A stretch of DNA of 62,586 nucleotides, filler included, from Pseudomonadota bacterium (GTDB taxonomy: Bacteria; Bdellovibrionota_F; JAHFAK01; JBDREC01), in the NCBI GenBank assembly GCA_043820105.1. It is 8 parts of 8 records of this genome, joined end to end, with 100 filler letters (N's around TTAATTAATTAA, not from the genome) between each part and the next. Parts side by side here need not be neighbours in the genome. Positions count along the whole stretch, not along the records: positions 26,369 to 49,437 come from JBDREC010000043.1; 7 more parts are not named here. One strand, given 5' to 3'. Of the stretch, positions 2,210 through 36,148 are shown piece by piece; the first letter of the stretch is position 1; every line of letters starts with the position of its first letter. The notes beneath the pieces are model-generated. The model worked only from the letters and a program-made list of their open reading frames with translations, was not told the origin of the DNA and ran no database searches. Both the position numbers and the translations under genes were made by a program.

Positions 2210-3091
2210 TTATTTAGAATTCAGCCTGAGTTTTATAAACTCACTATATTCAGGAAGGTGTTTTAATGTTTCGTGCATTGGCATCTCAGAATGGCATTGT
2301 ATGCATAAAGCTCGAAGCTTGTCGAAGGAATTGTCAGCCTTACTTGCTAAATGATGAACGTGTAAAAAATTTGGATGATTTTTTAATTCAATATTGCACT
2401 TTTCGCATATCCAGCTTTTAGATTCTCTATATTTTTTGGAGATTTCACGAAAATTCTCTGGATAGACATCAAGTGGTGCAGTGTTTTCCGAATAATTTGG
2501 ACTTGATATGAAGTTAACATTCTTATATTTTTTAAAGAAATCCTCTAACTTAAAAGCTTTAAAAATTTGGTCATTTTCTTTTTTCGTTTTTCTAACTATG
2601 TCGAAATCATTAAAGTTAAACTTATCAAGACAATATCTACACACATCTAAATGCTTATTATTATCAATTTCAATAACTTTTTTAGAGTCTCTATCAATAA
2701 TGTTTACCTTAAATTTGCCACTAGTTCTTCTGGATGCAACATATCTATAAAATCTGCCCCTTTTATTCATTTCATTTAAGGTTCTACAAAAGTTTAAATG
2801 GTATTTACGTGGTTTACTAATTCCTCTCTCATCGTAATATTTTTTGTCCACAGGCCAATCTCTGATGTAAACTAAGACTTTATGGCCATGATATTCAAAA
2901 GTTTCATCGTCAGTTACAAGGCTTAAAATATCTTCAACTTCTATACCATCTACAGACTGGAGCTTTTCATATATGTCTTTTGCACTTGCATAGTTCCACT
3001 TAGCTTTAATGTCCCAGAACTTATACTCTGCTTTCATTTCTTGTCTTAGTTTGTTGAATTTAGAACATAAACTGAAGTCTGGAAGCTTCAT
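2210..3091 (-). CDS. zorE: HNH nuclease, Zorya type II effector ZorE-like
   Basis: C-terminal CEKC...LHVHH...LCIQCH HNH motif; overlaps the MotB-like gene upstream by 4 bp. Confidence 0.8.
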   Translation of the reverse strand: MKLPDFSLCSKFNKLRQEMKAEYKFWDIKAKWNYASAKDIYEKLQSVDGIEVEDILSLVTDDETFEYHGHKVLVYIRDWPVDKKYYDERGISKPRKYHLNFCRTLNEMNKRGRFYRYVASRRTSGKFKVNIIDRDSKKVIEIDNNKHLDVCRYCLDKFNFNDFDIVRKTKKENDQIFKAFKLEDFFKKYKNVNFISSPNYSENTAPLDVYPENFREISKKYRESKSWICEKCNIELKNHPNFLHVHHLASKADNSFDKLRALCIQCHSEMPMHETLKHLPEYSEFIKLRLNSK

Positions 3092-3768
3092 AAAGATCTC
3101 GATGCAATTTTTTTAATTCTTTTCTCAGCATTTGTTTTGACCCGGAATTCAACTCTTCTAGACAGGGTTCTGTCTTCTATGTTTTCCTCATTATAAATAA
3201 CCTTGCTTGATGATAAACCATTTGCTGTTAAGTGTTTTTTTAGCCAAGCCTTTTTATTATCAATTTCATCTAGGTTCAAAACATATTTTAAAACACTTCT
3301 AGTTCTATCTTGTGATAATTTCATATTATAAAAATAAGCTTCATTTTCATCTTGGTTTTTTAAACCAGGACTTGAAGTGTGTCCCTCCACTCTAATCTCA
3401 TCAATTTCTTTTTTGAACTTATCTTTTGTAACGACCCTAATATATCTTGGAAAGAAATCCTTTAAAATATTTTGGAATTTATTATTCACATCACATTTCC
3501 CCCTATCAAACAATATGTCCGGCTCCTTAAATCTAATTGAAAGTGTATCTTCATCGATAATAGCTTTCCATTTTGGCAGATCATTTTTAAATTCCTTAGC
3601 TAAAGCTTCATAGATTTCATTTTGTATTTTTGTGTATGTTGTTGCTACCTCTTTAACTTTTATCATGTAGCTTATTGCTATAAATAAAAATACAATCATT
3701 AAGCCTGCCATTAAATCTGATACCGAAATCCAGTGACCTTCTTCTGATCGTTTATTCTGTAATTTCAC
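3088..3768 (-). CDS. zorB: Zorya ZorB (MotB/OmpA-like)
   Basis: WISVSDLMAGLMIVFLFIAI TM with conserved Asp; VEGHTSS, NMKLSQDRTRSV, SRRVEF OmpA-like motifs. Confidence 0.88.
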   Translation of the reverse strand: MKLQNKRSEEGHWISVSDLMAGLMIVFLFIAISYMIKVKEVATTYTKIQNEIYEALAKEFKNDLPKWKAIIDEDTLSIRFKEPDILFDRGKCDVNNKFQNILKDFFPRYIRVVTKDKFKKEIDEIRVEGHTSSPGLKNQDENEAYFYNMKLSQDRTRSVLKYVLNLDEIDNKKAWLKKHLTANGLSSSKVIYNEENIEDRTLSRRVEFRVKTNAEKRIKKIASRSL

Positions 3769-26039: not shown

Positions 26040-26369
26040 GGCCCCTCCTTAAAATAAGTTACTTTTTTATTATAACATAAAAAATAAAAAATAAAAAATA
26101 AAAAATAAAAATAGATAAAAAAGATCACTGCAATTCAGACACTATATTTTTAATAATTTAGGCCGGCATCCAATTGATGGTATTATAAACATGATCAATG
26201 GAGTATCTTTGCTGCAAGTAATTTTTAGTACATTATTTTCTTGTTGAATTAAAGGTGGTGGGTATACCNNNNNNNNNNNNNNNNNNNNNNNNNNNNNNNN
26301 NNNNNNNNNNNNTTAATTAATTAANNNNNNNNNNNNNNNNNNNNNNNNNNNNNNNNNNNNNNNNNNNNT

Positions 26370-27566
26370 AGATATGGTGAAATTGAAGTTGACTACACAA
26401 TTGAACTACCTTACGAATATCCTCTATATACACCAGCTGATCTTCCCGAAGAATATCCATTTTATTTTGGAGATGATTATGAACTCGGTGAGCAAGACTA
26501 TCCTTATCAAAGTCATGATAACCAACCAGAATTTATTATTTTACCTGATCCTAACAAAGATCCGAATATAGGAAAACCTCTAATTATTGAACCAAGTCCT
26601 GAAAGGGAAGATGAAAATAAAAAACAAATAATTAGATCATTTGAAATAATAGCTTCAGGTGAAAATGAGGGAGATAGTGAAGTGATAGACAATGAAAATC
26701 AGGATATTGGGAATGTAGAACATACAGAGAAATCGACACAAGGGTCGAGTGGAATGCTAGAAAGAAAGTTGGATACTGATACAGTACAGAAATGGGATGA
26801 AAAATTAAAATTTCAAGTAGAAGTGTCTTTTGATAGGCAATACAACTTTATGATGGAGAATGGCTTAGATGAATGTGATGAAATTTTGGATGTTGGAACA
26901 GGTAACGGTTACTTCTTGGGGTTATTAGCAGTTAATAAGCCATATGTGTCTTTTACTGGATTAGACTCTAATGAAACTATGCTTGGGCGTGCAGAAGACA
27001 TAGTCCAGGGATTGGGAGTTGATAATGTTACACTATTAAGTGGAGACATAGATCAGGATCCATTTGGAGATAAAGAACCTCAATTTGATGGGATATTATT
27101 GAGATATACTGATGTTCATATAAGTGATTTTGAACATACATTATCTATACTATCAAAATATCTAAAACCAGGGGGTAGAATTTGGATTTTTTCCGTTGAA
27201 ATAGATAATATGGGGAGTACTCCTGAGCATGAAGTCTATAAATTATATATTGAAGGAATTCAAAGGTTTTACCATACATTTGGCATAGATGGACATAGAG
27301 CTACTATTCTTACATCCTTGCTTGATATTGCAGGGTTTTCTGAAGTAGTAAGTGTTCCTGATTTAATTTCAACTAAAGATCTTGGTGCTAAAATGTTTGG
27401 TGACTTTATGATAAATCAGGCTGAAGTGTTCAGACATTTTGATAGTACATCCTTTTCCGAAGAGGATGTTGAAATAATAAGAGATTTTGCTCATACTTAT
27501 TTATCATCTCAAGAGTTTAATGGCACTCACGGTGCAGTGATGGTTACGGCTGTTAAAAGCGAATAA
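26370..27566 (+). CDS. Class I SAM methyltransferase with long acidic Pro/Tyr-rich N-terminal region (5' partial)
   Basis: Frame is open from the contig start (RYGEIEVDYTIELPYEYP...) into ILDVGTGNG...LKPGG. Confidence 0.8.
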   Translation, partial: RYGEIEVDYTIELPYEYPLYTPADLPEEYPFYFGDDYELGEQDYPYQSHDNQPEFIILPDPNKDPNIGKPLIIEPSPEREDENKKQIIRSFEIIASGENEGDSEVIDNENQDIGNVEHTEKSTQGSSGMLERKLDTDTVQKWDEKLKFQVEVSFDRQYNFMMENGLDECDEILDVGTGNGYFLGLLAVNKPYVSFTGLDSNETMLGRAEDIVQGLGVDNVTLLSGDIDQDPFGDKEPQFDGILLRYTDVHISDFEHTLSILSKYLKPGGRIWIFSVEIDNMGSTPEHEVYKLYIEGIQRFYHTFGIDGHRATILTSLLDIAGFSEVVSVPDLISTKDLGAKMFGDFMINQAEVFRHFDSTSFSEEDVEIIRDFAHTYLSSQEFNGTHGAVMVTAVKSE

Positions 27567-27577
27567 ATATCACAAAT

Positions 27578-29551
27578 ATGGTGTGTGAAATGAAAAATAA
27601 AAAAATATGTTTAATTAATCCACCAACTTCTAATAAAATGGAACCAGCAGGTTTGCCAGCAGGATTACTCGCCATAGGTTCTATTTTAAAGAAAAGTTAT
27701 AAAAACGTTTGGATTTCTGATATTGATGTTAAATCGAGAAAAGAAAAAAGGAAACCACATCAAACTTTTTATACTAATTTAATTGAAGATATTGTAAAGA
27801 CAGAACCGAATATAATTGGATTTACATCATACTGTAATAACTTACCAGTTGTGATACATATGGCAATGGAAATAAAAAAATTAAATAAGGACATTACGAT
27901 TATATTAGGTGGCCCTCAACCGACTTTTACAGCCTCAGAAATTATGAAAAATTTCAACTGTTTTGATGTGATAAGCAGAGGAGAATCAGAAAGTCATATT
28001 AATAAATTAATATTTAAAATAAACAATAATGATTCTTTGGAATTTATACCTAATATCACTTATAAAAAATCTAATAAAGTAATAAATACAGAACCAGGAA
28101 TGCTGATTGAAGACTTAGATTGTCTTCCCGAAACAGATTATTCGTTGTTGGAATTAACCGAATATAATCCCAATAAAGAAAATATTAATATTTCTATTGA
28201 AGCAGGTAGAGGATGCCCATTTAGTTGCACATTTTGCTCAACCTCTTTGATGTGGCAAAGAAAATGTCGAATGAAGTCAATTCCAAGGTTGTATAGTGAT
28301 ATGACAAAAGCAGCAAAGACCTTTGATTATAAACATCTAGCATTAATTCATGATAACTTCACTGTAAACAAATCATACCTAATTGATTTTTGCAATTATC
28401 TAATAATGAAAAACACACCTTTTACATGGGCTTGTAGTTCTAGAGCTGATCAACTAGATGAAGAAACACTTAATATTATGAAGGAGGCAGGTTGTTGCGA
28501 GATTTATTTTGGAATTGAAAGTGGTTCAGCGAGAATCCAAAAACAAACGAAAAAGAATTTGAACATTTCTAAAGTAAAAAATGTATTAAAAAAAGTAGCG
28601 ACATCTGATATTAACTGTATATCATCTTTCATTATTGGGCATATTGAAGAGACAAAAATTGACTTAGATCAAACTTTAGAATTAATATTATATTTGAAAC
28701 TTAATGGTATTAACTTAATCCAAATGCATTTGCTAGCAGCCCATAGTGGAACTAAAGTATATGAAGAAGTCAAAGACCATTTATTTTTAAAAGCACATTC
28801 ATCTCATTTAGGTCCAATTGAAAGTTTGGAATGGAGTAGTAAATTATATGACATTGTCAAAGCGTTTCCAGAAATCTTTCCTGCTTTTTATCATTTCCAT
28901 CGTAAAAATATTGATTCAAAATTCTTAGAATTCATTCAAAATTCAGGTTTTATATTGATTAATAGTTTTTTCAGGTCAATTTATACAATATCATGTCTTA
29001 TATCTATTTCTCCAGTTGAATTGCTTTATAGGTTATATAAAAATCAATTTAAGATAACTAATGAAAATATTTCTTCAAATGATATTGAAAAGGCATTCCA
29101 CTGCATACTCGAAATTATAAGGTCTGAGAAAAAAGATTATATTAATGATATTTTAGAATATGAATTAGCAATTTATAAGCTCTCCGTTTTAGAAAATAGC
29201 GCCATTATTTTAAAAAAGCATACTAAGATAATAATAGATGGAAAGACTTTTAAATTAAAGTCTAAATTATTATTACGAAAGCTTCGTTATGAGATCGAAA
29301 ATGATAAGTTGGCAAATATGATTAAACGTGATGCATATTATTTGTTTGTTTCTGATGAGTTTAAATTTAATGAATATGAATCTTCTGTTGTTGTATTTGA
29401 GATAGAGGAGGAATTGTATCATTTTCTGGAGATCATTTCTTCAAAAGACTACTATTCATTTGATACTATTGATTTGGCGCTTTTAAGATTATCTATTTCC
29501 AAAATGAATTTAGATGATTTGGTTAAAAATAATATTTTAAATCTTACCTAA
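27578..29551 (+). CDS. Cobalamin-binding radical SAM enzyme
   Basis: N-terminal B12-binding region (LINPP..P.GLL.IGS, IGFTSY, ILGGPQPT, RGESE); GRGCPFSCTFC CxxxCxxC; YFGIESGS; long C-terminal extension. Confidence 0.9.
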   Translation: MVCEMKNKKICLINPPTSNKMEPAGLPAGLLAIGSILKKSYKNVWISDIDVKSRKEKRKPHQTFYTNLIEDIVKTEPNIIGFTSYCNNLPVVIHMAMEIKKLNKDITIILGGPQPTFTASEIMKNFNCFDVISRGESESHINKLIFKINNNDSLEFIPNITYKKSNKVINTEPGMLIEDLDCLPETDYSLLELTEYNPNKENINISIEAGRGCPFSCTFCSTSLMWQRKCRMKSIPRLYSDMTKAAKTFDYKHLALIHDNFTVNKSYLIDFCNYLIMKNTPFTWACSSRADQLDEETLNIMKEAGCCEIYFGIESGSARIQKQTKKNLNISKVKNVLKKVATSDINCISSFIIGHIEETKIDLDQTLELILYLKLNGINLIQMHLLAAHSGTKVYEEVKDHLFLKAHSSHLGPIESLEWSSKLYDIVKAFPEIFPAFYHFHRKNIDSKFLEFIQNSGFILINSFFRSIYTISCLISISPVELLYRLYKNQFKITNENISSNDIEKAFHCILEIIRSEKKDYINDILEYELAIYKLSVLENSAIILKKHTKIIIDGKTFKLKSKLLLRKLRYEIENDKLANMIKRDAYYLFVSDEFKFNEYESSVVVFEIEEELYHFLEIISSKDYYSFDTIDLALLRLSISKMNLDDLVKNNILNLT

Positions 29552-29577
29552 TTTATAAAACTGAAAGGAGATTTTTT

Positions 29578-29631
29578 ATGAAAAAAAAGGAGACTATTAA
29601 GATTATTCGAAAACCTTTTTGTCAGGGCTAG
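29578..29631 (+). CDS. 17-aa peptide MKKKETIKIIRKPFCQG, candidate radical SAM substrate
   Basis: Strong RBS AAAGGAG 7 nt before ATG; 26 bp after the rSAM stop; followed by a hairpin; below the ORF-track length cutoff. Confidence 0.7.
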   Translation: MKKKETIKIIRKPFCQG

Positions 29632-29668
29632 TTGATTTAATCTTATATTGGAAGTTAACTAGTTTAAT

Positions 29669-29720
29669 CTTGGGAGGAAAACTAATATGCTTTTTTTGTT
29701 TTCCTCTCAAGTTAGTTTTT
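29669..29720 (+). terminator. Hairpin after the micro-peptide
   Basis: 14-bp stem CTTGGGAGGAAAAC / GTTTTCCTCTCAAG followed by a T-rich tract. Confidence 0.65.
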
Positions 29721-29731
29721 ATTAAAAAAAC

Positions 29732-31300
29732 ATGAAGATTGAAATTCTTTTAAAATTTAGAATATTAGAAATAATTTTTTGCCTGAATTTTATTCTTTTA
29801 TCGAATATATATAGTAATAATGAAAAAAAATATGAAACAGCAATAATTTCAAATCCAGGCTCTATTGATCCAAAAGATATAAGAAATCTATATGCAACAC
29901 TAATCGGATCACAAATTTTTGAAGGATTAGTAAAAGTTGATGAGAACCTGAACATAGTTCCAGCTATAGCTAAAAGTTGGGAGATTAGTGGTAACGGTAA
30001 AGTTACCACCTTCGTATTAAGAAAAGGAGTTCGTTTTCATAATGGGAAAGAAGTTACTTCGGATGATTTTGTTTATTCATTGAGTAGAATTATTAAAAAA
30101 GAAGAAGATAACCTCTATTTTAAATCCTTTGATAATATTGTAGGAGCTAGAGAGTATAAATTAAATAAAGCAAAAACAGTAAAAGGGATATTTTCAAAAG
30201 ATAGATATACTCTTGAAATCAATTTAATTAAACCGAATCCTTCGTTTTATAAAATTCTTGCTGCTGTAAATTGCGGTGTAATTCCATTTGCATTTGCTGA
30301 AATTAAATCAAACAATATTAAATATTTTCCTGTTAGTGCGGGACCATTTAAAGTTGAAAAATGGGAATTAAATAAAAAAATATTACTGACACGACATGAT
30401 CAATATTATGATACTTTGCCTAATATAAATAAATTAGTTTTTAATATTACAACTGAGAAGCAATTGCTTGAAGATTTTAATTCAGGGAAAATCTACGATA
30501 CGTTTAGCTTAAGTCTTTATAAAGATATTAATGTAAAATATTTAAATAGCTATTTAATTGAAGAAAAACTTCCCTTACTACATTTTATTGCAATAAATAA
30601 TAAGATAGAACCTTTTAATAATATATATTATCGCAGAGCTTTGCATTATGGATTAGATAAGAAAAGACTTGTGTCAGAGGTTTTTGGTAAAGAAAATATA
30701 ACTAATAGCTCTATACCTTATGGAATCGGCGGCTATTCTTCAGAAATGAAAACCTATGAATATTCTACAATAAAAGCAAAAAAAATGCTATCAAAGTCAA
30801 GTTTATCGATAGATGATTTGTCTAAAAAAATAATAATTTGGGGGAGAAATTCCTTGCCCAACAAGGATAAATTTAAGGATATTATTGAAAATAATTATAG
30901 GACCATAGGTTTAAATCCTGAAGTTCGTTTCATATCAACTAATCTTTTTCTAAAAAAATTTTATGCAGGAGAGATGGGAATGTTCTATGCTATGCATAAT
31001 ATCAATATGAATGACGCGGGATTCATCCTTGCTTGGTATGAGTCAAAAAACAAATTGAATTTTACTGGATTGAATAATAAGAAGTTTGATCTTTTAATGG
31101 AAATGGCACGCGAAGAATCGGATGATTATATAAAATTTAGATTATATTCAAAAGCTGATTATATTATTAATGATGAAGCAGTACAGATTAATTTATTTAA
31201 TAAAGTCTTTAAAATGTATGTGAATAATAAAGTTAGTAATTTTAAATTATTTAAAATTGGTCCAATTGTACAATATAAATTAATTTATATTGAAGAATAG
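29732..31300 (+). CDS. Family 5 (OppA/DppA-like) solute-binding protein, no permease adjacent
   Basis: SIDP..QIFEGLV..IVPAIAKSWEIS..F.LRKGVRFHNG..TSDDFVYS; AGPFK; RRAL.YGLD. Confidence 0.9.
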   Translation: MKIEILLKFRILEIIFCLNFILLSNIYSNNEKKYETAIISNPGSIDPKDIRNLYATLIGSQIFEGLVKVDENLNIVPAIAKSWEISGNGKVTTFVLRKGVRFHNGKEVTSDDFVYSLSRIIKKEEDNLYFKSFDNIVGAREYKLNKAKTVKGIFSKDRYTLEINLIKPNPSFYKILAAVNCGVIPFAFAEIKSNNIKYFPVSAGPFKVEKWELNKKILLTRHDQYYDTLPNINKLVFNITTEKQLLEDFNSGKIYDTFSLSLYKDINVKYLNSYLIEEKLPLLHFIAINNKIEPFNNIYYRRALHYGLDKKRLVSEVFGKENITNSSIPYGIGGYSSEMKTYEYSTIKAKKMLSKSSLSIDDLSKKIIIWGRNSLPNKDKFKDIIENNYRTIGLNPEVRFISTNLFLKKFYAGEMGMFYAMHNINMNDAGFILAWYESKNKLNFTGLNNKKFDLLMEMAREESDDYIKFRLYSKADYIINDEAVQINLFNKVFKMYVNNKVSNFKLFKIGPIVQYKLIYIEE

Positions 31301-31332: not shown

Positions 31333-34299
31333 ATGAACTTTAAACTTAAACAGTTATTAACATTATCTTCATTATTAATTGTTGCGATATGTTGGATTGT
31401 AGCTTCAATTAATATCTATTTTTATACTAAATCATTAATTTTAAAGAGTTATAAAAATCATCATGTTGAAAAAACAAAAAATTTACATTCAGTATTAAAG
31501 AATGATATAATAACCGGAAACTATATAAAAGTTAAAATTCAATTAGAGCTATTCGTAAGGCAAACAAATGCAGATATTGCTATTGTATTTGATAAAAATG
31601 AAGTTATCTTAGAATCAGCCACTAAAGATATCTCATTAAATATTTCAACTTTTAACAATAATTTCAGTAATTCAAATCTTAATGAGAATGAAGTAATAGA
31701 ATATGCCTTCTTGAAACATAAGTCTGAAAACATTTTTATATGTTCTTCTCCAATTTTATTTCAAGGGCTGAAAGGCGATTACTTTGGAAAGTTATATATT
31801 GTTTATAATACTAAAGCATTAAATACTCAATTGATAAATTTGATTGTTTTTTTCGCTAGTGTTGTGATTATAGCACTTATTTGCCAATTTTTTATAATTA
31901 ATCTGGTTGCCAATAAAATAATAAACTCAATTTTGTCATTAATATATTCTATAAAAAAATCTGATAATAAGGGGTATTTAACTCCTGTTAAAATTGACAC
32001 GGATATTTTAGAATTAAAAGAACTCTCAATAGAGTATAATAAAATGGTAAAAAAGGTAAGAGAAGCTCACAAGACAATAAAAAACATTACTGCACTTGCT
32101 GCTATTGGTCAAACAACCTCAATGCTTGCTCATGACGTACGCAAACCTTTCACCAGCATGAAATCCATTCTTTCTATGATCGATAAAATTAAGGATAATC
32201 CTAGCTCTTTAAAAAAAGCAAAAAAAACAGTTAATGAAACGATCGCTCATGTTGAGAGCATGATATCTGATATTTTAAATTTTTCTAGAGAAGTAAAAGT
32301 CGAAGTAAATCCAGAGGGAGCTTCTGGTCTAATTGATTTCTCTGTTAGACAAGCTGTCCAAGGACACAAGAATATTTCAGTTGATTTTGAATATGATTTA
32401 AAAAATGATTTGAAACCACTTGTAGATGATGAAAGAATGGCTAGAGTTTTCGTTAATATCATTGGAAATGGCATTGAAGCTCTGAAAAGCCATCAGCCTT
32501 CAGCTATCAGCATTCACCTGGAAAATTCAAGGAGTACTACAAGCTACAAGCCACAAGCTACAAGCTTAATTTGGCTTAAAACTAGAAACTTTATGAAAGA
32601 TGAAAAGGAATTTGTTGAAATAATAATTGGCAATAATGGTCCTAAAATAGCAGAAGAGGATCTAAAAAATTTATTCGAATCATTTTTTACCAAAGGCAAG
32701 AAAGCTGGTACAGGTTTAGGTTTAGCATCAGCACATAAGATTGTTACATTACATGGTGGAACTATTGAGGCAAGGAATGTTGTAGAGAACAAGAGAACAA
32801 GAGCACAGGAGAACAAGAGCGCTAGAGCACCAGAGCACCGGTGCACCAGTATGACAGACACTGAATACCAAACACTGAATACCGAATACAAATCCGGAGT
32901 AGAGTTTGTAATTACAATCCCTGCTTCAAATGAAATTGATAAACATAATTTGGGTATTCTTCCAAAAAACACAGATGAAATACTTTTTGTTGAATATGAA
33001 CCCTTGCAAGAAGACACGGACGAAAAACTAAGTTTTTTATTGAAACAAGAAAAAATAAAAGTAGTTTTATTAGAAGATGAAACGCTTTATAGAGCCTTTG
33101 TTAGAAACACTATTGAAAGCAATGAGGTTCTAAATAAAATAATTACCTTATATGATGCAGATAAAGTTGATGAATGTATAGATCTAGTAAAAAAAGAGTC
33201 CATTGGTTTTGCAATTGTAGATATAGACTTAAATGAAGAAAAAAATGGATATGATTTTCTTAAAGAAATTAAGGATCAGAAAATAAAACTTAATTCAATT
33301 GTTCATTCTAACCGGTATTTAGATGAGGAAATTCAGCATGCATACGACTTGGGTGCTAAATCATATGCGAGCAAACCTTTTTCAACTGAACAGCTTGTAG
33401 ATTTTCTCTATATTAATTTGGGTGGTAAGGTTAAGGAATCCAGAAGGGATAATCAAGACGATCAGGTGCCTAATGATCTTGCTAAAAAGAGCAAGGAAGG
33501 CAAAAAACTAATATGTTTTGTTATTGATGATAACTTTATTACTAGAGAAAATATTGCTATGATGCTGAAAGAACCTTTAGAAGGTTATAATTATGAAATT
33601 AAAAAATATGAGTCGCCATTTGATGCTGAAAAAGAATTTGATGAAATAAAACCAGATCTTGTTATTAGCGATAACCACTTAGGTTGTGATGATGAAATTC
33701 TTGGAGAGGATCTATTAAAGAAATTTCGCGATAAGGAAGATAAGGTTTTATTATATCTTTGTTCTGATGCTGTTGAGGAGTCTTTAAAAGAAAAGGCAAA
33801 GAAGAGTAAAGCAAATGGCTTTTTTCCACCAAATGTAACAAAAGAAGAGTTTAACAATATTATATTATCAGACTTAGAAAAATACTTGAATAAAATAAAA
33901 TCAGCTGACTCAATAACTCGTGAAGAGAAAAAAGCTTTATCAAAATACTTCCATGACATTAATAAACCGATTTTAAATGCATCAATTGTTTTTAAATTGT
34001 TTATAAATTCAAAAGAGGAAGTTTCTATTGAAGAAAAGAATAAACAACTAGAGGCTTTAAAAAATGCATATTCTACATATTCTAAAGTATATGAAAATAG
34101 CAGCAACTTATTTGTTGACTACAAGAACCTTATACATGTAGGGATAAAAGATAATTATTCAAAACAATTTATATTTATGAAAACGCTTCTTGAGTTAGAT
34201 TTATTAGAAGTATTTACTGAGGCTAATTTAAACAGTATAAATGAATTTTCAAAGATGAATAGGGAATATGGGAAAGAAGTTAGAAAAGCTTTATCATAG
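31333..34299 (+). CDS. Membrane hybrid histidine kinase (sensor-HAMP-HisKA-HATPase-REC-REC plus C-terminal H-box-like helix)
   Basis: 2 TM; AHDVRKP H-box; NIIGNG, NNGP, FFTKG, GTGLGL; LLEDE..VDID; VIDDN..ISDNHL; C-terminal HDINKP. Confidence 0.9.
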   Translation: MNFKLKQLLTLSSLLIVAICWIVASINIYFYTKSLILKSYKNHHVEKTKNLHSVLKNDIITGNYIKVKIQLELFVRQTNADIAIVFDKNEVILESATKDISLNISTFNNNFSNSNLNENEVIEYAFLKHKSENIFICSSPILFQGLKGDYFGKLYIVYNTKALNTQLINLIVFFASVVIIALICQFFIINLVANKIINSILSLIYSIKKSDNKGYLTPVKIDTDILELKELSIEYNKMVKKVREAHKTIKNITALAAIGQTTSMLAHDVRKPFTSMKSILSMIDKIKDNPSSLKKAKKTVNETIAHVESMISDILNFSREVKVEVNPEGASGLIDFSVRQAVQGHKNISVDFEYDLKNDLKPLVDDERMARVFVNIIGNGIEALKSHQPSAISIHLENSRSTTSYKPQATSLIWLKTRNFMKDEKEFVEIIIGNNGPKIAEEDLKNLFESFFTKGKKAGTGLGLASAHKIVTLHGGTIEARNVVENKRTRAQENKSARAPEHRCTSMTDTEYQTLNTEYKSGVEFVITIPASNEIDKHNLGILPKNTDEILFVEYEPLQEDTDEKLSFLLKQEKIKVVLLEDETLYRAFVRNTIESNEVLNKIITLYDADKVDECIDLVKKESIGFAIVDIDLNEEKNGYDFLKEIKDQKIKLNSIVHSNRYLDEEIQHAYDLGAKSYASKPFSTEQLVDFLYINLGGKVKESRRDNQDDQVPNDLAKKSKEGKKLICFVIDDNFITRENIAMMLKEPLEGYNYEIKKYESPFDAEKEFDEIKPDLVISDNHLGCDDEILGEDLLKKFRDKEDKVLLYLCSDAVEESLKEKAKKSKANGFFPPNVTKEEFNNIILSDLEKYLNKIKSADSITREEKKALSKYFHDINKPILNASIVFKLFINSKEEVSIEEKNKQLEALKNAYSTYSKVYENSSNLFVDYKNLIHVGIKDNYSKQFIFMKTLLELDLLEVFTEANLNSINEFSKMNREYGKEVRKALS

Positions 34300-34327
34300 G
34301 TTTTAGACATGGTTGAAAGGAGAGTTT

Positions 34328-35371
<1,044 letters not shown>

Positions 35372-35473: not shown

Positions 35474-35557
35474 TGCCGAGGGCCGGAATCGAACCGGCAC
35501 GCCCTTGCGGACGCGGGATTTTGAATCCCGTGCGTCTACCAATTTCACCACCCCGGC
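35474..35557 (-). tRNA. tRNA-Leu(CAA)
   Basis: GCCGGGG acceptor stem, TGGTAGAC D-arm, CGGGA-TTCAAAA-TCCCG anticodon arm, long variable arm, GGTTCGATTCC T-arm; CCA not encoded. Confidence 0.95.
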
Positions 35558-35560
35558 TAG

Positions 35561-35716
35561 GGGAAATTACAAATAACAAATTCCAAATTACAAAAAAGGA
35601 GAATAAATTCACCCTTATTATGGGAAATTACAAATAACAAATTCCAAATTACAAAAAAGGAGAATAAATTCACCCTTATTATGGGAAATTACAAATAACA
35701 AATTCCAAATTACAAA
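35561..35716. repeat. 61-bp tandem repeat (about 2.5 copies) carrying an AAATTAC-type heptamer array
   Basis: Unit gggaaattacaaataacaaattccaaattacaaaaaaggagaataaattcacccttattat starts at 35561, 35622 and 35683. Confidence 0.9.
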
Positions 35717-35739
35717 TAAAAATTCGATGAATCAAGAAA

Positions 35740-36099
35740 TTATTCGGATTTTTTTATTATTGATGAAAGAATATTTCTTAGTTCTTTTGATTCTGTTATA
35801 AATTCATCAGCATCACCTGAATAATTTTGATTTGCTTCTTTTAAAAGTTCCAGCCAATATGTGCTTTCTTTGCATTCTTTCCTAGAGATTTTCATTCTGT
35901 ATAAAAAATCTTTCTTGCTAATAGCATCATTAGCTTCTCTATAATTGGCACCAACTGATCCAGATGCATTTACAAGTTGACCTATTAACTTGATGTTGAT
36001 CGTGCTATTAGGAATTTTCTTGCATAAACGAATAATTCCCTTTGCATACTCTAATGTTCTTTCCTCTAGGTCGTATGGCTTAATATTTTTTGATACCAT
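35740..36099 (-). CDS. Four-helix-bundle protein (TIGR02436-like)
   Basis: YDLEERT..QLVNASGSVGANYREANDAISKKDF..ISRKECKESTYWL; likely start MVSKN at 36099. Confidence 0.9.
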   Translation of the reverse strand: MVSKNIKPYDLEERTLEYAKGIIRLCKKIPNSTINIKLIGQLVNASGSVGANYREANDAISKKDFLYRMKISRKECKESTYWLELLKEANQNYSGDADEFITESKELRNILSSIIKKSE

Positions 36100-36148
36100 T
36101 GTAATTTGTGTATTATTTGTCATTTGTTATTTGAAATTTGTGATTTTC
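36098..36148. repeat. Heptamer array inverted relative to 35561-35716
   Basis: atttgtc-atttgtt-atttgaa-atttgtg-att. Confidence 0.8.

Follow-up and report, generated by a model that had tools for sequence, protein, structure and literature searches.

A conserved 17-codon reading frame beside a cobalamin-binding radical SAM enzyme as candidate precursor gene of a receptor-linked cluster

What is the role of an open reading frame (ORF) of only 17 codons that lies between the gene of a cobalamin (B12)-binding radical S-adenosylmethionine (SAM) enzyme and the gene of a secreted solute-binding protein (SBP)? The question is raised by a 62,586-nt stretch of DNA, called the window in the following, from the metagenome-assembled genome of a Pseudomonadota bacterium (GCA_043820105.1; 3.81 Mb, 113 contigs, 32% G+C). 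The window consists of contigs joined end to end, and its positions 26369-49437 represent contig C43 (JBDREC010000043.1), which carries on the plus strand a methyltransferase-tailed gene, the B12-radical SAM gene, the 17-codon ORF, the SBP gene, a hybrid kinase gene and a sigma-54-type regulator gene, in this order. The original prediction had proposed the ORF as a very short precursor of a ribosomally made and post-translationally modified peptide (RiPP). According to our analysis, the ORF is very probably a real gene. We see an even chance that its product is a minimal RiPP-type precursor or scaffold of the radical SAM enzyme, which would be modified near the C-terminus and probably serve as ligand of the SBP-kinase pair, with the hairpin behind the ORF acting as partial terminator or stabiliser.

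The 17-codon frame and its counterparts at two further loci

The radical SAM and SBP genes are separated by a spacer of 180 nt, which houses the small ORF and two hairpins. All elements that had been described before are present in the sequence: the Shine-Dalgarno (SD) sequence AAAGGAG (29564..29570, plus strand) stands 7 nt ahead of an ATG (29578-29580), the 17 sense codons encode MKKKETIKIIRKPFCQG, the stop codon is TAG (29629-29631), and a 14-bp stem follows downstream. The candidate precursor gene hence occupies positions 29578..29631 on the plus strand. That the genome makes use of SD sequences is evident from the presence of a 4-mer SD at 1172 of 2775 gene starts (42%) versus 215 of 2782 control positions (8%). 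ORFs of the present kind are scarce: if the 6-mers AAGGAG or AGGAGG are demanded as SD, there are only 32 SD-led ATG ORFs of 10-40 codons on both strands of the 560,925 bases outside long ORFs in the whole genome, and about 0.005 are expected per 180-nt spacer on one strand. The 17-codon ORF is more than a product of chance. The spacer region occurs only once in the genome, no paralog of the peptide is encoded there, and Rfam yields no credible match for the spacer region (a single sub-threshold mir-7 row with an E-value of 0.083 is taken as chance).

Relatives of the radical SAM enzyme with more than 40% identity are extremely rare (three among 5.8 billion proteins). DNA was available for two of them, locus L031 on a 2,181-nt contig and locus L128 on a 4,558-nt contig, and the radical SAM proteins encoded there are 40-41% identical to that of the window. 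Both loci contain a gap-free 17-codon frame in the same spacer between the radical SAM and SBP genes, and in the MAFFT alignment the three frames match codon by codon from start to stop without a gap. In L031, the stop codon of the radical SAM gene is followed by the SD sequence GAAAGGAGG, 5 nt, an ATG and the frame MKKKETVNKIKKVISQM with its stop codon; then come a 13-bp hairpin and the gene of an SBP that is 45% identical to the window SBP. The frame of L128 reads (TTG)RPKYIIKKIRKVHCQV, ends with KYIIKKIRKVHCQV directly before the stop codon, and precedes an SBP gene with 50% identity at the protein level. The original prediction had named the lack of a conserved ORF or ribosome-binding site at orthologous loci, along with a lack of translation evidence, as grounds for its refutation. 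The frame is kept at both loci, which speaks against a refutation on the first of these grounds; the ribosome-binding site is kept in L031 and is missing in L128. A reading of the L128 frame as a 62-aa protein is not preferred, since its first 28 codons overlap the radical SAM gene and are A-rich and of low complexity.

The similarity of the peptides was assessed by a permutation test, using the ungapped BLOSUM62 score of the window peptide against the two spacers. The score of 35 obtained with the L031 spacer was reached by none of 3000 shuffles and by none of 5000 random windows of the own genome, and the score of 31 obtained with L128 by four of 3000 shuffles and, again, by none of 5000 windows. 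In both spacers the best-scoring 17-mer directly precedes a stop codon. The conservation is concentrated in the last eight residues of the peptide, which share the C-terminal pattern [I]-[R/K]-K-x-x-[C/S]-Q-x-stop. K4, I10, K12 and the penultimate Gln16 are invariant in all three peptides, and it is these residues, instead of the single cysteine mentioned in the original prediction, that are conserved; the tail PFCQG as such is not conserved among the three loci either. A motif derived post hoc from the three sequences ([IVLM][RK]K..[CS]Q.-stop) was not used as a test. In a six-frame search it occurs only in the three spacers within the 2.1 Mb of fetched loci, but also at six places in the 3.8-Mb own genome.

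Of the 16 residues following the methionine, 8 are identical in the window and L031 peptides, and six of these eight codons differ by one synonymous base only. The third-base changes beneath conserved residues (AAA/AAG, GAG/GAA, ATT/ATA, TGT/TGC, CAG/CAA) argue for selection on the protein rather than on the RNA. They are therefore difficult to reconcile with a frame that arose by chance in an AT-rich spacer and owes its similarity across loci to a conserved RNA or DNA element. The permutation tests, the missing Rfam match, and the same length and stop position at three loci whose radical SAM proteins are only 40-41% identical speak against such an origin as well. It could nevertheless explain why L128 has neither ATG nor SD; A-rich DNA also readily gives Lys-rich frames, and one contig of run X1 breaks the frame. 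In sum, we consider a chance ORF very improbable.

The contig just mentioned concerns a run of eight A (A8) at 29581-29588, straight after the ATG. Two pieces from run X1 were placed on the window at an identity of at least 99%. A 165-nt contig of this run (depth 2) matches positions 29499-29662 save for one extra A in the A8 run, and this A9 version would yield MKKKGDY followed by a stop codon. The additional A may be a sequencing error at this depth or a genuine variant that breaks the frame, perhaps as part of slippage-prone on/off variation.

The radical SAM enzyme and its predicted peptide-binding domain

The gene upstream of the ORF (27578..29551, plus strand) encodes a protein of 657 aa, the database copy of which starts at 27590 and has 653 aa. 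Matches to PF02310 (E 5e-12) and PF04055 (E 3.7e-17) confirm the former assignment as B12-binding radical SAM enzyme, and the CxxxCxxC motif (C213, C217, C220) is invariant in the alignment of the family. The best curated match in NCBIfam is the RiPP methylase ApyD (NF050148) with 289.3 bits versus a cutoff of 750, covering residues 29-440 of the protein and positions 27-432 of the 645 in the model; the runners-up are other peptide or cofactor methylases. The enzyme has no SPASM match in Pfam. The companions of ApyD, namely the MNIO ApyH, the RiPP recognition element (RRE) partner ApyI and the P450 ApyO, were not detected by a Pfam scan of the 22 ORFs on or next to C43.

Of special interest is the C-terminal extension of 228 aa (residues 430-657; 28865..29548, plus strand), which is conserved within the small radical SAM family. 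A profile of this domain matches only eight proteins among 1.84 billion representatives. The AlphaFold2 (AF2) model calculated from seven sequences (pLDDT 73.9, pTM 0.73) begins with a helical subdomain, behind which strands and three helices form an RRE-like beta/alpha subdomain; it supersedes a first model from four sequences, with a pLDDT of 60.5 and Foldseek rows at E 0.045 or worse. In the VIA structure comparison, the best matches of the model are NGO1945 (3dee_A, Z 10.6, 178 aligned residues) and one of the chains in the TglHI entry (8hci_C, Z 10.5, 187 aligned residues), while the next row has a Z score of 6.7. Judging from its fold, the matched 8hci chain should be TglI rather than TglH. 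Foldseek lists 8hi7_A with E 1.1e-3 and 3dee with E 1.3e-3. RRE chains (PqqD, the leader-bound lasso B1 protein, PbtF and CteB) superpose on the last 105 residues of the domain (residues 123-228) with Z scores of 4.4-4.8. The C-terminal domain is thus predicted to fold like TglI and NGO1945, i.e. as a helical domain joined to an RRE peptide-binding domain, and the idea of an RRE-like extension put forward in the original prediction finds support in this model.

The predicted TglI/RRE-like domain suggests that the substrate of the radical SAM enzyme is a peptide, and no conserved peptide gene other than the 17-codon gene is visible. This gene adjoins the radical SAM gene and is co-conserved with it at all three loci with available DNA, as is expected of a RiPP precursor and its maturase; the order of radical SAM gene, small ORF and SBP gene is likewise the same in 3/3 loci. 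It is conceivable that the product of the ORF exists as a small protein but escapes modification by the radical SAM enzyme, and that it acts as an unmodified basic peptide ligand or partner of the SBP-kinase pair or as small regulator. The radical SAM enzyme and the methyltransferase would then act on a peptide encoded further upstream, outside the contig, or on a non-peptide substrate. Many B12-radical SAM enzymes in the NCBIfam family list use non-peptide substrates, and the SBP family binds unmodified peptides. Moreover, the part of the cluster upstream of the radical SAM gene lies outside the contigs at all three loci, and in two further cassettes of the same genome (on contigs C34 and C26, see below) a small ORF of 63 and 71 aa, respectively, is found upstream and not downstream of the radical SAM gene. 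We nevertheless judge this explanation unlikely. It is at odds with the position of the small ORF directly after the radical SAM gene in three of three loci and with the predicted peptide-binding domain. In addition, the gene ahead of the radical SAM gene is separated from it by only 11 nt, a gap that leaves no room for a precursor between the two. This upstream gene (3' part, 26370..27566, plus strand) ends with a class-I SAM methyltransferase domain (Pfam Methyltransf_31/25/11, E 3e-15). Its frame runs open up to the beginning of the contig at 26369, and only the 3' part of what must be a large protein is visible.

No ortholog of the radical SAM enzyme was found in 60 kin and other genomes (best match 32%, catalytic part only), and a single-protein search of genome contigs with the enzyme did not reveal close relatives. 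Locus L113 (3536-6782) encodes a B12-radical SAM enzyme with 31% identity over residues 7-598, next to a 103-aa precursor of the Frankia_peptide/NHLP type and a second radical SAM enzyme. It was rejected as a member of the system, since it represents another RiPP cluster of the broader clade of enzymes. A complex prediction of the L128 C-terminal domain with the 62-aa in-frame L128 ORF gave no answer on their association (score 0.00).

Hairpins, putative receptor genes and the proposed pathway

The ORF is followed by two hairpins. Hairpin 1 (29626..29664, plus strand; -11.4 kcal/mol alone), which had escaped notice before, begins at the last sense codon and overlaps this codon and the stop codon. 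Hairpin 2 with its T-rich tail (29669..29723, plus strand) resembles a terminator: its arms (29669-29682 and 29698-29711) form a 14-bp stem of 13 Watson-Crick pairs and one G-U pair around a 15-nt loop (-19.9 kcal/mol alone), and are followed by TTAGTTTTTATT, nine of the 12 nt behind the stem being T. Hairpin 2 was not called by the terminator scan, in which loops have to measure 3-8 nt. Taken together, the 110 nt at 29626-29735 fold with -33.6 kcal/mol (z -6.1), and none of 200 shuffles was as stable. The structure after the ORF is more than chance. Across the loci, the hairpin claimed in the original prediction has a strong counterpart in L031 and none in L128. It may raise the amount of peptide mRNA relative to that of the downstream genes, as had been proposed.

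In the window, the 5' arm of hairpin 2 contains GGGAGG and its loop an ATG (29687), whereas the SBP start codons of the window, L031 and L128 have no SD of their own. As an observation in its own right, each locus has a GGAG-type SD with a start codon approximately 30-45 nt ahead of the SBP start (window 29687-29725, L031 1663, L128 1394-1423). In the window, GGGAGG-N9-ATG opens a mini-ORF of 12 codons in the SBP frame that stops 6 nt before the SBP ATG; in L031 a GTG in the SBP frame follows the SD, and in L128 AAAGGAG-N8-ATG opens an ORF of nine codons ahead of the SBP gene. Both in the window and in L031 the SD lies in the 5' arm of a hairpin and the start codon in its loop.

These features bring up the possibility of a regulatory leader peptide (upstream ORF), the translation or C-terminal ribosome arrest of which would control termination at the hairpin or expression of the SD-less SBP gene, so that the peptide itself would not serve as a substrate. 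The ORF immediately precedes the SBP-kinase genes, its last codon is the place where hairpin 1 begins, and both the window and L031 have a GGAGG hidden in the 5' arm of the hairpin and a start codon in its loop. The most conserved eight residues are those that would lie near the peptidyl-transferase centre at termination. However, when the 14 nt after the stop codon were masked, hairpin 2 persisted with -19.9 kcal/mol and no alternative pairing appeared, and the same holds true for L031, while L128 has no significant structure. An attenuator switch finds no support in masked folding, which does not show mutually exclusive terminator and antiterminator pairings in the window or in L031. A leader peptide would also leave the peptide-binding-type domain of the radical SAM enzyme without explanation, as no further peptide gene is visible, and we regard it as quite unlikely.

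Returning to the candidate precursor, the genes behind it offer a possible receptor. The SBP gene (29732..31300, plus strand) encodes a secreted family-5 protein of the peptide/nickel type (PF00496, E 5.7e-63), whose best NCBIfam matches (Opp4A, OppA and DppA) are all far under the cutoff; the signal peptides of the SBPs were judged by eye from the N-termini. The RpoB protein of the organism is at most 68% identical to any match, and its named best matches carry labels of the Myxococcota, Bdellovibrionota and Desulfobacterota type. The organism hence appears to be a deep-branching diderm, and the expected location of the SBP would be the periplasm. The clade of this SBP has a sharp border, as four further orthologs with 49-59% identity among 5.8 billion proteins are followed by proteins with no more than 33%. 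Two of the orthologs (P0246 and P0247) seem to be encoded on the same Logan contigs as the radical SAM relatives P0002 and P0122, judging from matching source and length. A third, P0249 from a 51,695-nt NCBI contig, had no match in the genome-contig search, and the SBP profile scan of genome contigs kept 80 loci, all of them at most 38% identical and none a member of the system. Pfam scans of the SBP neighbours in the window and in L128 did not reveal any ATP-binding cassette (ABC) permease or ATPase family.

The next gene (31333..34299, plus strand) encodes a hybrid histidine kinase (HisKA, HATPase_c, REC) with a membrane-flanked N-terminal sensor region. Residues 1-247 of this sensor are 30% identical (E 4e-36) to the product of a 3'-open gene in L128, i.e. 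the sensor is conserved at both loci that reach that far. In the own genome the sensor part is unique, while paralogs of the transmitter part number at least six (49-67% identity). A transporter-less secreted SBP encoded beside a kinase with extracytoplasmic sensor, the two being co-conserved, is the constellation expected of a binding-protein-dependent sensor. Comparison of 158 radical SAM-based loci with the SBP, kinase, regulator, methyltransferase and creatininase proteins detected the SBP only in L031 and L128 and the kinase only in L128. The kinase gene is followed by that of a sigma-54-dependent response regulator (REC and AAA+ domains by Pfam; 34313..35370, plus strand) with an in-frame TAA at 35147-35149. 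The AAA+ motifs continue in the same frame past the TAA, with no DNA-binding domain after them, and the TAA may indicate a pseudogene, an assembly error or read-through.

How could these parts work together? The TglI-like domain fused to the radical SAM enzyme would bind the short basic, beta-branched N-terminal half of the peptide (MKKKETIKII), and the catalytic domain would thereby be offered the conserved tail I-[R/K]-K-x-x-[C/S]-Q-x. With ApyD as the model, a cobalamin-dependent C-methylation near the C-terminus would be the likely reaction, for which the invariant penultimate Gln would be our guess as preferred site. The hairpin with its T-run would act as partial terminator, as 3' stabiliser or as both, so that the message of the peptide would be more abundant than that of the genes behind it. 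Either the whole modified peptide or a C-terminal fragment would reach the periplasm, where the co-conserved orphan SBP of the Opp/Dpp type would bind it and signal via the hybrid kinase to the sigma-54 activator. The last part, the sensing of the product by the SBP-kinase pair, we rate as somewhat less likely than not.

An extended version, which we consider rather unlikely, is a new type of peptide autoinducer circuit, in which a C-terminally tailored 17-mer is released into the periplasm, read by SBP and kinase, and amplified by a positive loop through sigma-54. The activator would act on a sigma-54-like promoter ahead of the radical SAM gene. A -24/-12-like element, TGGCACtcacgGTGCA, is present at 27521..27536 (plus strand), approximately 40 nt ahead of the radical SAM start; it has one mismatch to the sigma-54 consensus TGGCAC-N5-TTGCW. 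This element is weak and was identified post hoc, and nine sites with at most one mismatch exist on both strands of the whole window. The product would perhaps be released as a small C-terminal fragment (L128 has a hydrolase of the MftE family), and the genome would hold several such make-and-sense cassettes on paralogous kinases. Two more cassettes of small ORF, radical SAM gene and paralogous kinase gene are present in the genome, one of them with an SBP_bac_5 gene, and they also speak for the main reading of the 17-mer as a precursor. On C34 (locus L270, approximately 2940-3100, minus strand), the small ORF measures 63 aa, has a good SD and starts with a signal-peptide-like N-terminus; it is flanked by the gene of a GNAT-tailed membrane protein and by a radical SAM gene of 295 aa, behind which a Cache-domain kinase is encoded. 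On C26 (locus L275, 2117-7190, minus strand), a 71-aa ORF is accompanied by a radical SAM gene split into frames of 155 and 147 aa, an SBP_bac_5 gene, a GNAT gene and a kinase gene paralogous to that of the window, which amounts to a second arrangement of radical SAM enzyme, orphan SBP and kinase in the same genome. L128 itself harbors a creatininase-family gene (2991-3746; PF02633, E 7e-56) between the SBP and kinase genes. It is not present in the window locus, and the own-genome homolog, 30% identical, is located unlinked on C76.

The interpretation of the 17-mer as a precursor has to be weighed against a number of findings. With 17 residues, the peptide is short for leader-dependent recognition. 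The SD is conserved at only one of the two orthologous loci: the 17-codon frame of L128 has the TTG as its sole start, with no ATG and no SD, and an alternative in-frame ATG with SD lies 45 codons upstream, inside the radical SAM gene. The cysteine is a serine in L031, the last residue is variable, and the A9 version of the X1 contig breaks the frame. Downstream, the 13-bp stem of L031 has no T-run and L128 shows no significant structure (z -0.26). The enzyme stays well under the ApyD cutoff and is not filed as ApyD. Its C-terminal 228 aa have no RRE or PqqD match in Pfam (nothing useful up to E 1), a sequence-profile search of the PDB with this domain returned nothing, and the RRE-like fold depends on a model from seven sequences. 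The regulator gene carries its in-frame stop, and the Pfam scan of the C43 ORFs detected no exporter or protease gene on the contig. Finally, as the contigs of all three loci begin inside or just before the radical SAM gene, a conventional precursor gene may lie further upstream. The original reading as a short RiPP precursor is thus strengthened by the conserved ORF, the RiPP-methylase-like radical SAM enzyme and the RRE-like fold, and weakened by the unconserved cysteine and tail and by the possible upstream precursor.

Some features of the wider surroundings remain to be mentioned. At 26270-26368, runs of N flanking the letters TTAATTAATTAA mark a contig joint, and the genes to the left of it (LemA, DUF3137 and others) come from a different contig and do not count among the neighbours of the cluster. 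On C43 and directly next to it, the scan of the 22 ORFs did not detect a permease, ATPase, exporter or protease gene near the cluster. Residues 4-118 of the methyltransferase ORF are 59% and 42% identical to parts of a 956-aa membrane protein on C99 (locus L269, 3007-5877, minus strand) and an 820-aa membrane protein on C34 (locus L270, 3210-5672, minus strand), respectively, so that the ORF appears as the tail of a paralogous family of approximately 820-960 aa. Its members consist of a signal or transmembrane segment, a large N-terminal domain, transmembrane helices, a linker rich in Ser and Pro and an acidic region rich in Pro and Tyr; what varies is the enzyme domain at the C-terminus (methyltransferase on C99, GNAT on C34), and a gene for a paralogous sensor kinase stands after each. 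The transmitter paralogs of the kinase (49-67% identity) are found on short contigs of 2-10 kb (C48, C73, C7, C26 and C72), and they probably break the assembly, which may be the reason for the missing DNA upstream of C43. The kinase copy on C73 has a fused SBP_bac_3 sensor, and C72 carries two further B12-radical SAM fragments. Behind the regulator gene, the segments 35474-35760 and 35740-36123 (minus strand) contain a tRNA-Leu(CAA) followed by tandem short repeats (translated as …QITNSKLQ…), adjoining a gene of the 23S_rRNA_IVP family.

Significance and comparison with known systems

If the proposed reading is correct, the 17-mer would rank among the smallest precursor peptides of ribosomal origin. 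The maturase would represent a new build, in which a TglI-type recognition domain is fused to a cobalamin radical SAM enzyme, and it would be wired straight to a periplasmic receptor and a kinase. Peptide signalling in diderm bacteria is poorly documented, and the cluster, with three genes and a 17-mer, offers a compact and testable case. It also illustrates that the key gene of such clusters escapes the gene callers. Since the family is very rare, with eight C-terminal-domain proteins among 1.84 billion and four SBP orthologs among 5.8 billion, its general importance is uncertain. No description of such a system was found in the open-access literature searched.

Small precursors with C-terminal residues as reaction site are well established, for instance MccA, PqqA and MftA, the latter with MftC and MftE. 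The mycofactocin peptidase MftE belongs to the creatininase family, and the creatininase-family gene between the SBP and kinase genes of L128 is a likeness to this pathway. In contrast, the creatininase gene does not occur in the window locus, and the radical SAM enzyme of the window is of the B12 class and not of the SPASM class.

One of the closest likenesses is that to aminopyruvatide biosynthesis of Burkholderia thailandensis. ApyD is described as an RRE-containing B12-radical SAM enzyme that beta-methylates the penultimate residue of its precursor ApyA (PMC10635010). In both systems, a B12-radical SAM enzyme with a peptide-recognition domain (a predicted one in the window) acts, or in the window would act, beside the C-terminus of a peptide. 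Both clusters encode a SAM methyltransferase, and ApyD is the best curated match of the window enzyme. However, only the catalytic part of this enzyme (residues 29-440) matches, with 289 against 750 bits, and genes for an MNIO, an RRE partner and a P450 were not detected among the 22 ORFs scanned. The window peptide has only 17 aa and the tail …CQG instead of GYLYD as in ApyA, the methyltransferase is the C-terminal domain of a large membrane protein, and genes of an orphan SBP and a sensor kinase are part of the cluster.

The putative recognition domain, in turn, resembles TglI of TglHI from the 3-thiaglutamate pathway and NGO1945/DUF2063 (8hci, 8hi7, 3dee) in its predicted two-part fold, with Z scores of 10.5-10.6. 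TglI is described as combining an N-terminal helical domain with a C-terminal RRE that binds the carrier peptide TglA, and it recruits a carrier peptide that is modified at its C-terminal residue (PMC10880893). The domain in the window differs in being fused to a B12-radical SAM enzyme instead of partnering an MNIO, and the sequence identity is only 10-11%.

On the receptor side, a counterpart is the LuxP/LuxQ pair, a binding-protein-dependent sensor kinase with autoinducer-2 (AI-2) as ligand. There as here, a secreted SBP with no transporter is encoded beside a hybrid kinase with periplasmic sensor, and in our case the pair is co-conserved. The putative ligand would be the product of a ribosomal peptide and not AI-2. 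By analogy, the system may therefore be viewed as an ApyA/ApyD- or TglA/TglI-like pair of peptide and enzyme that is joined to a receptor in the style of LuxP/LuxQ.

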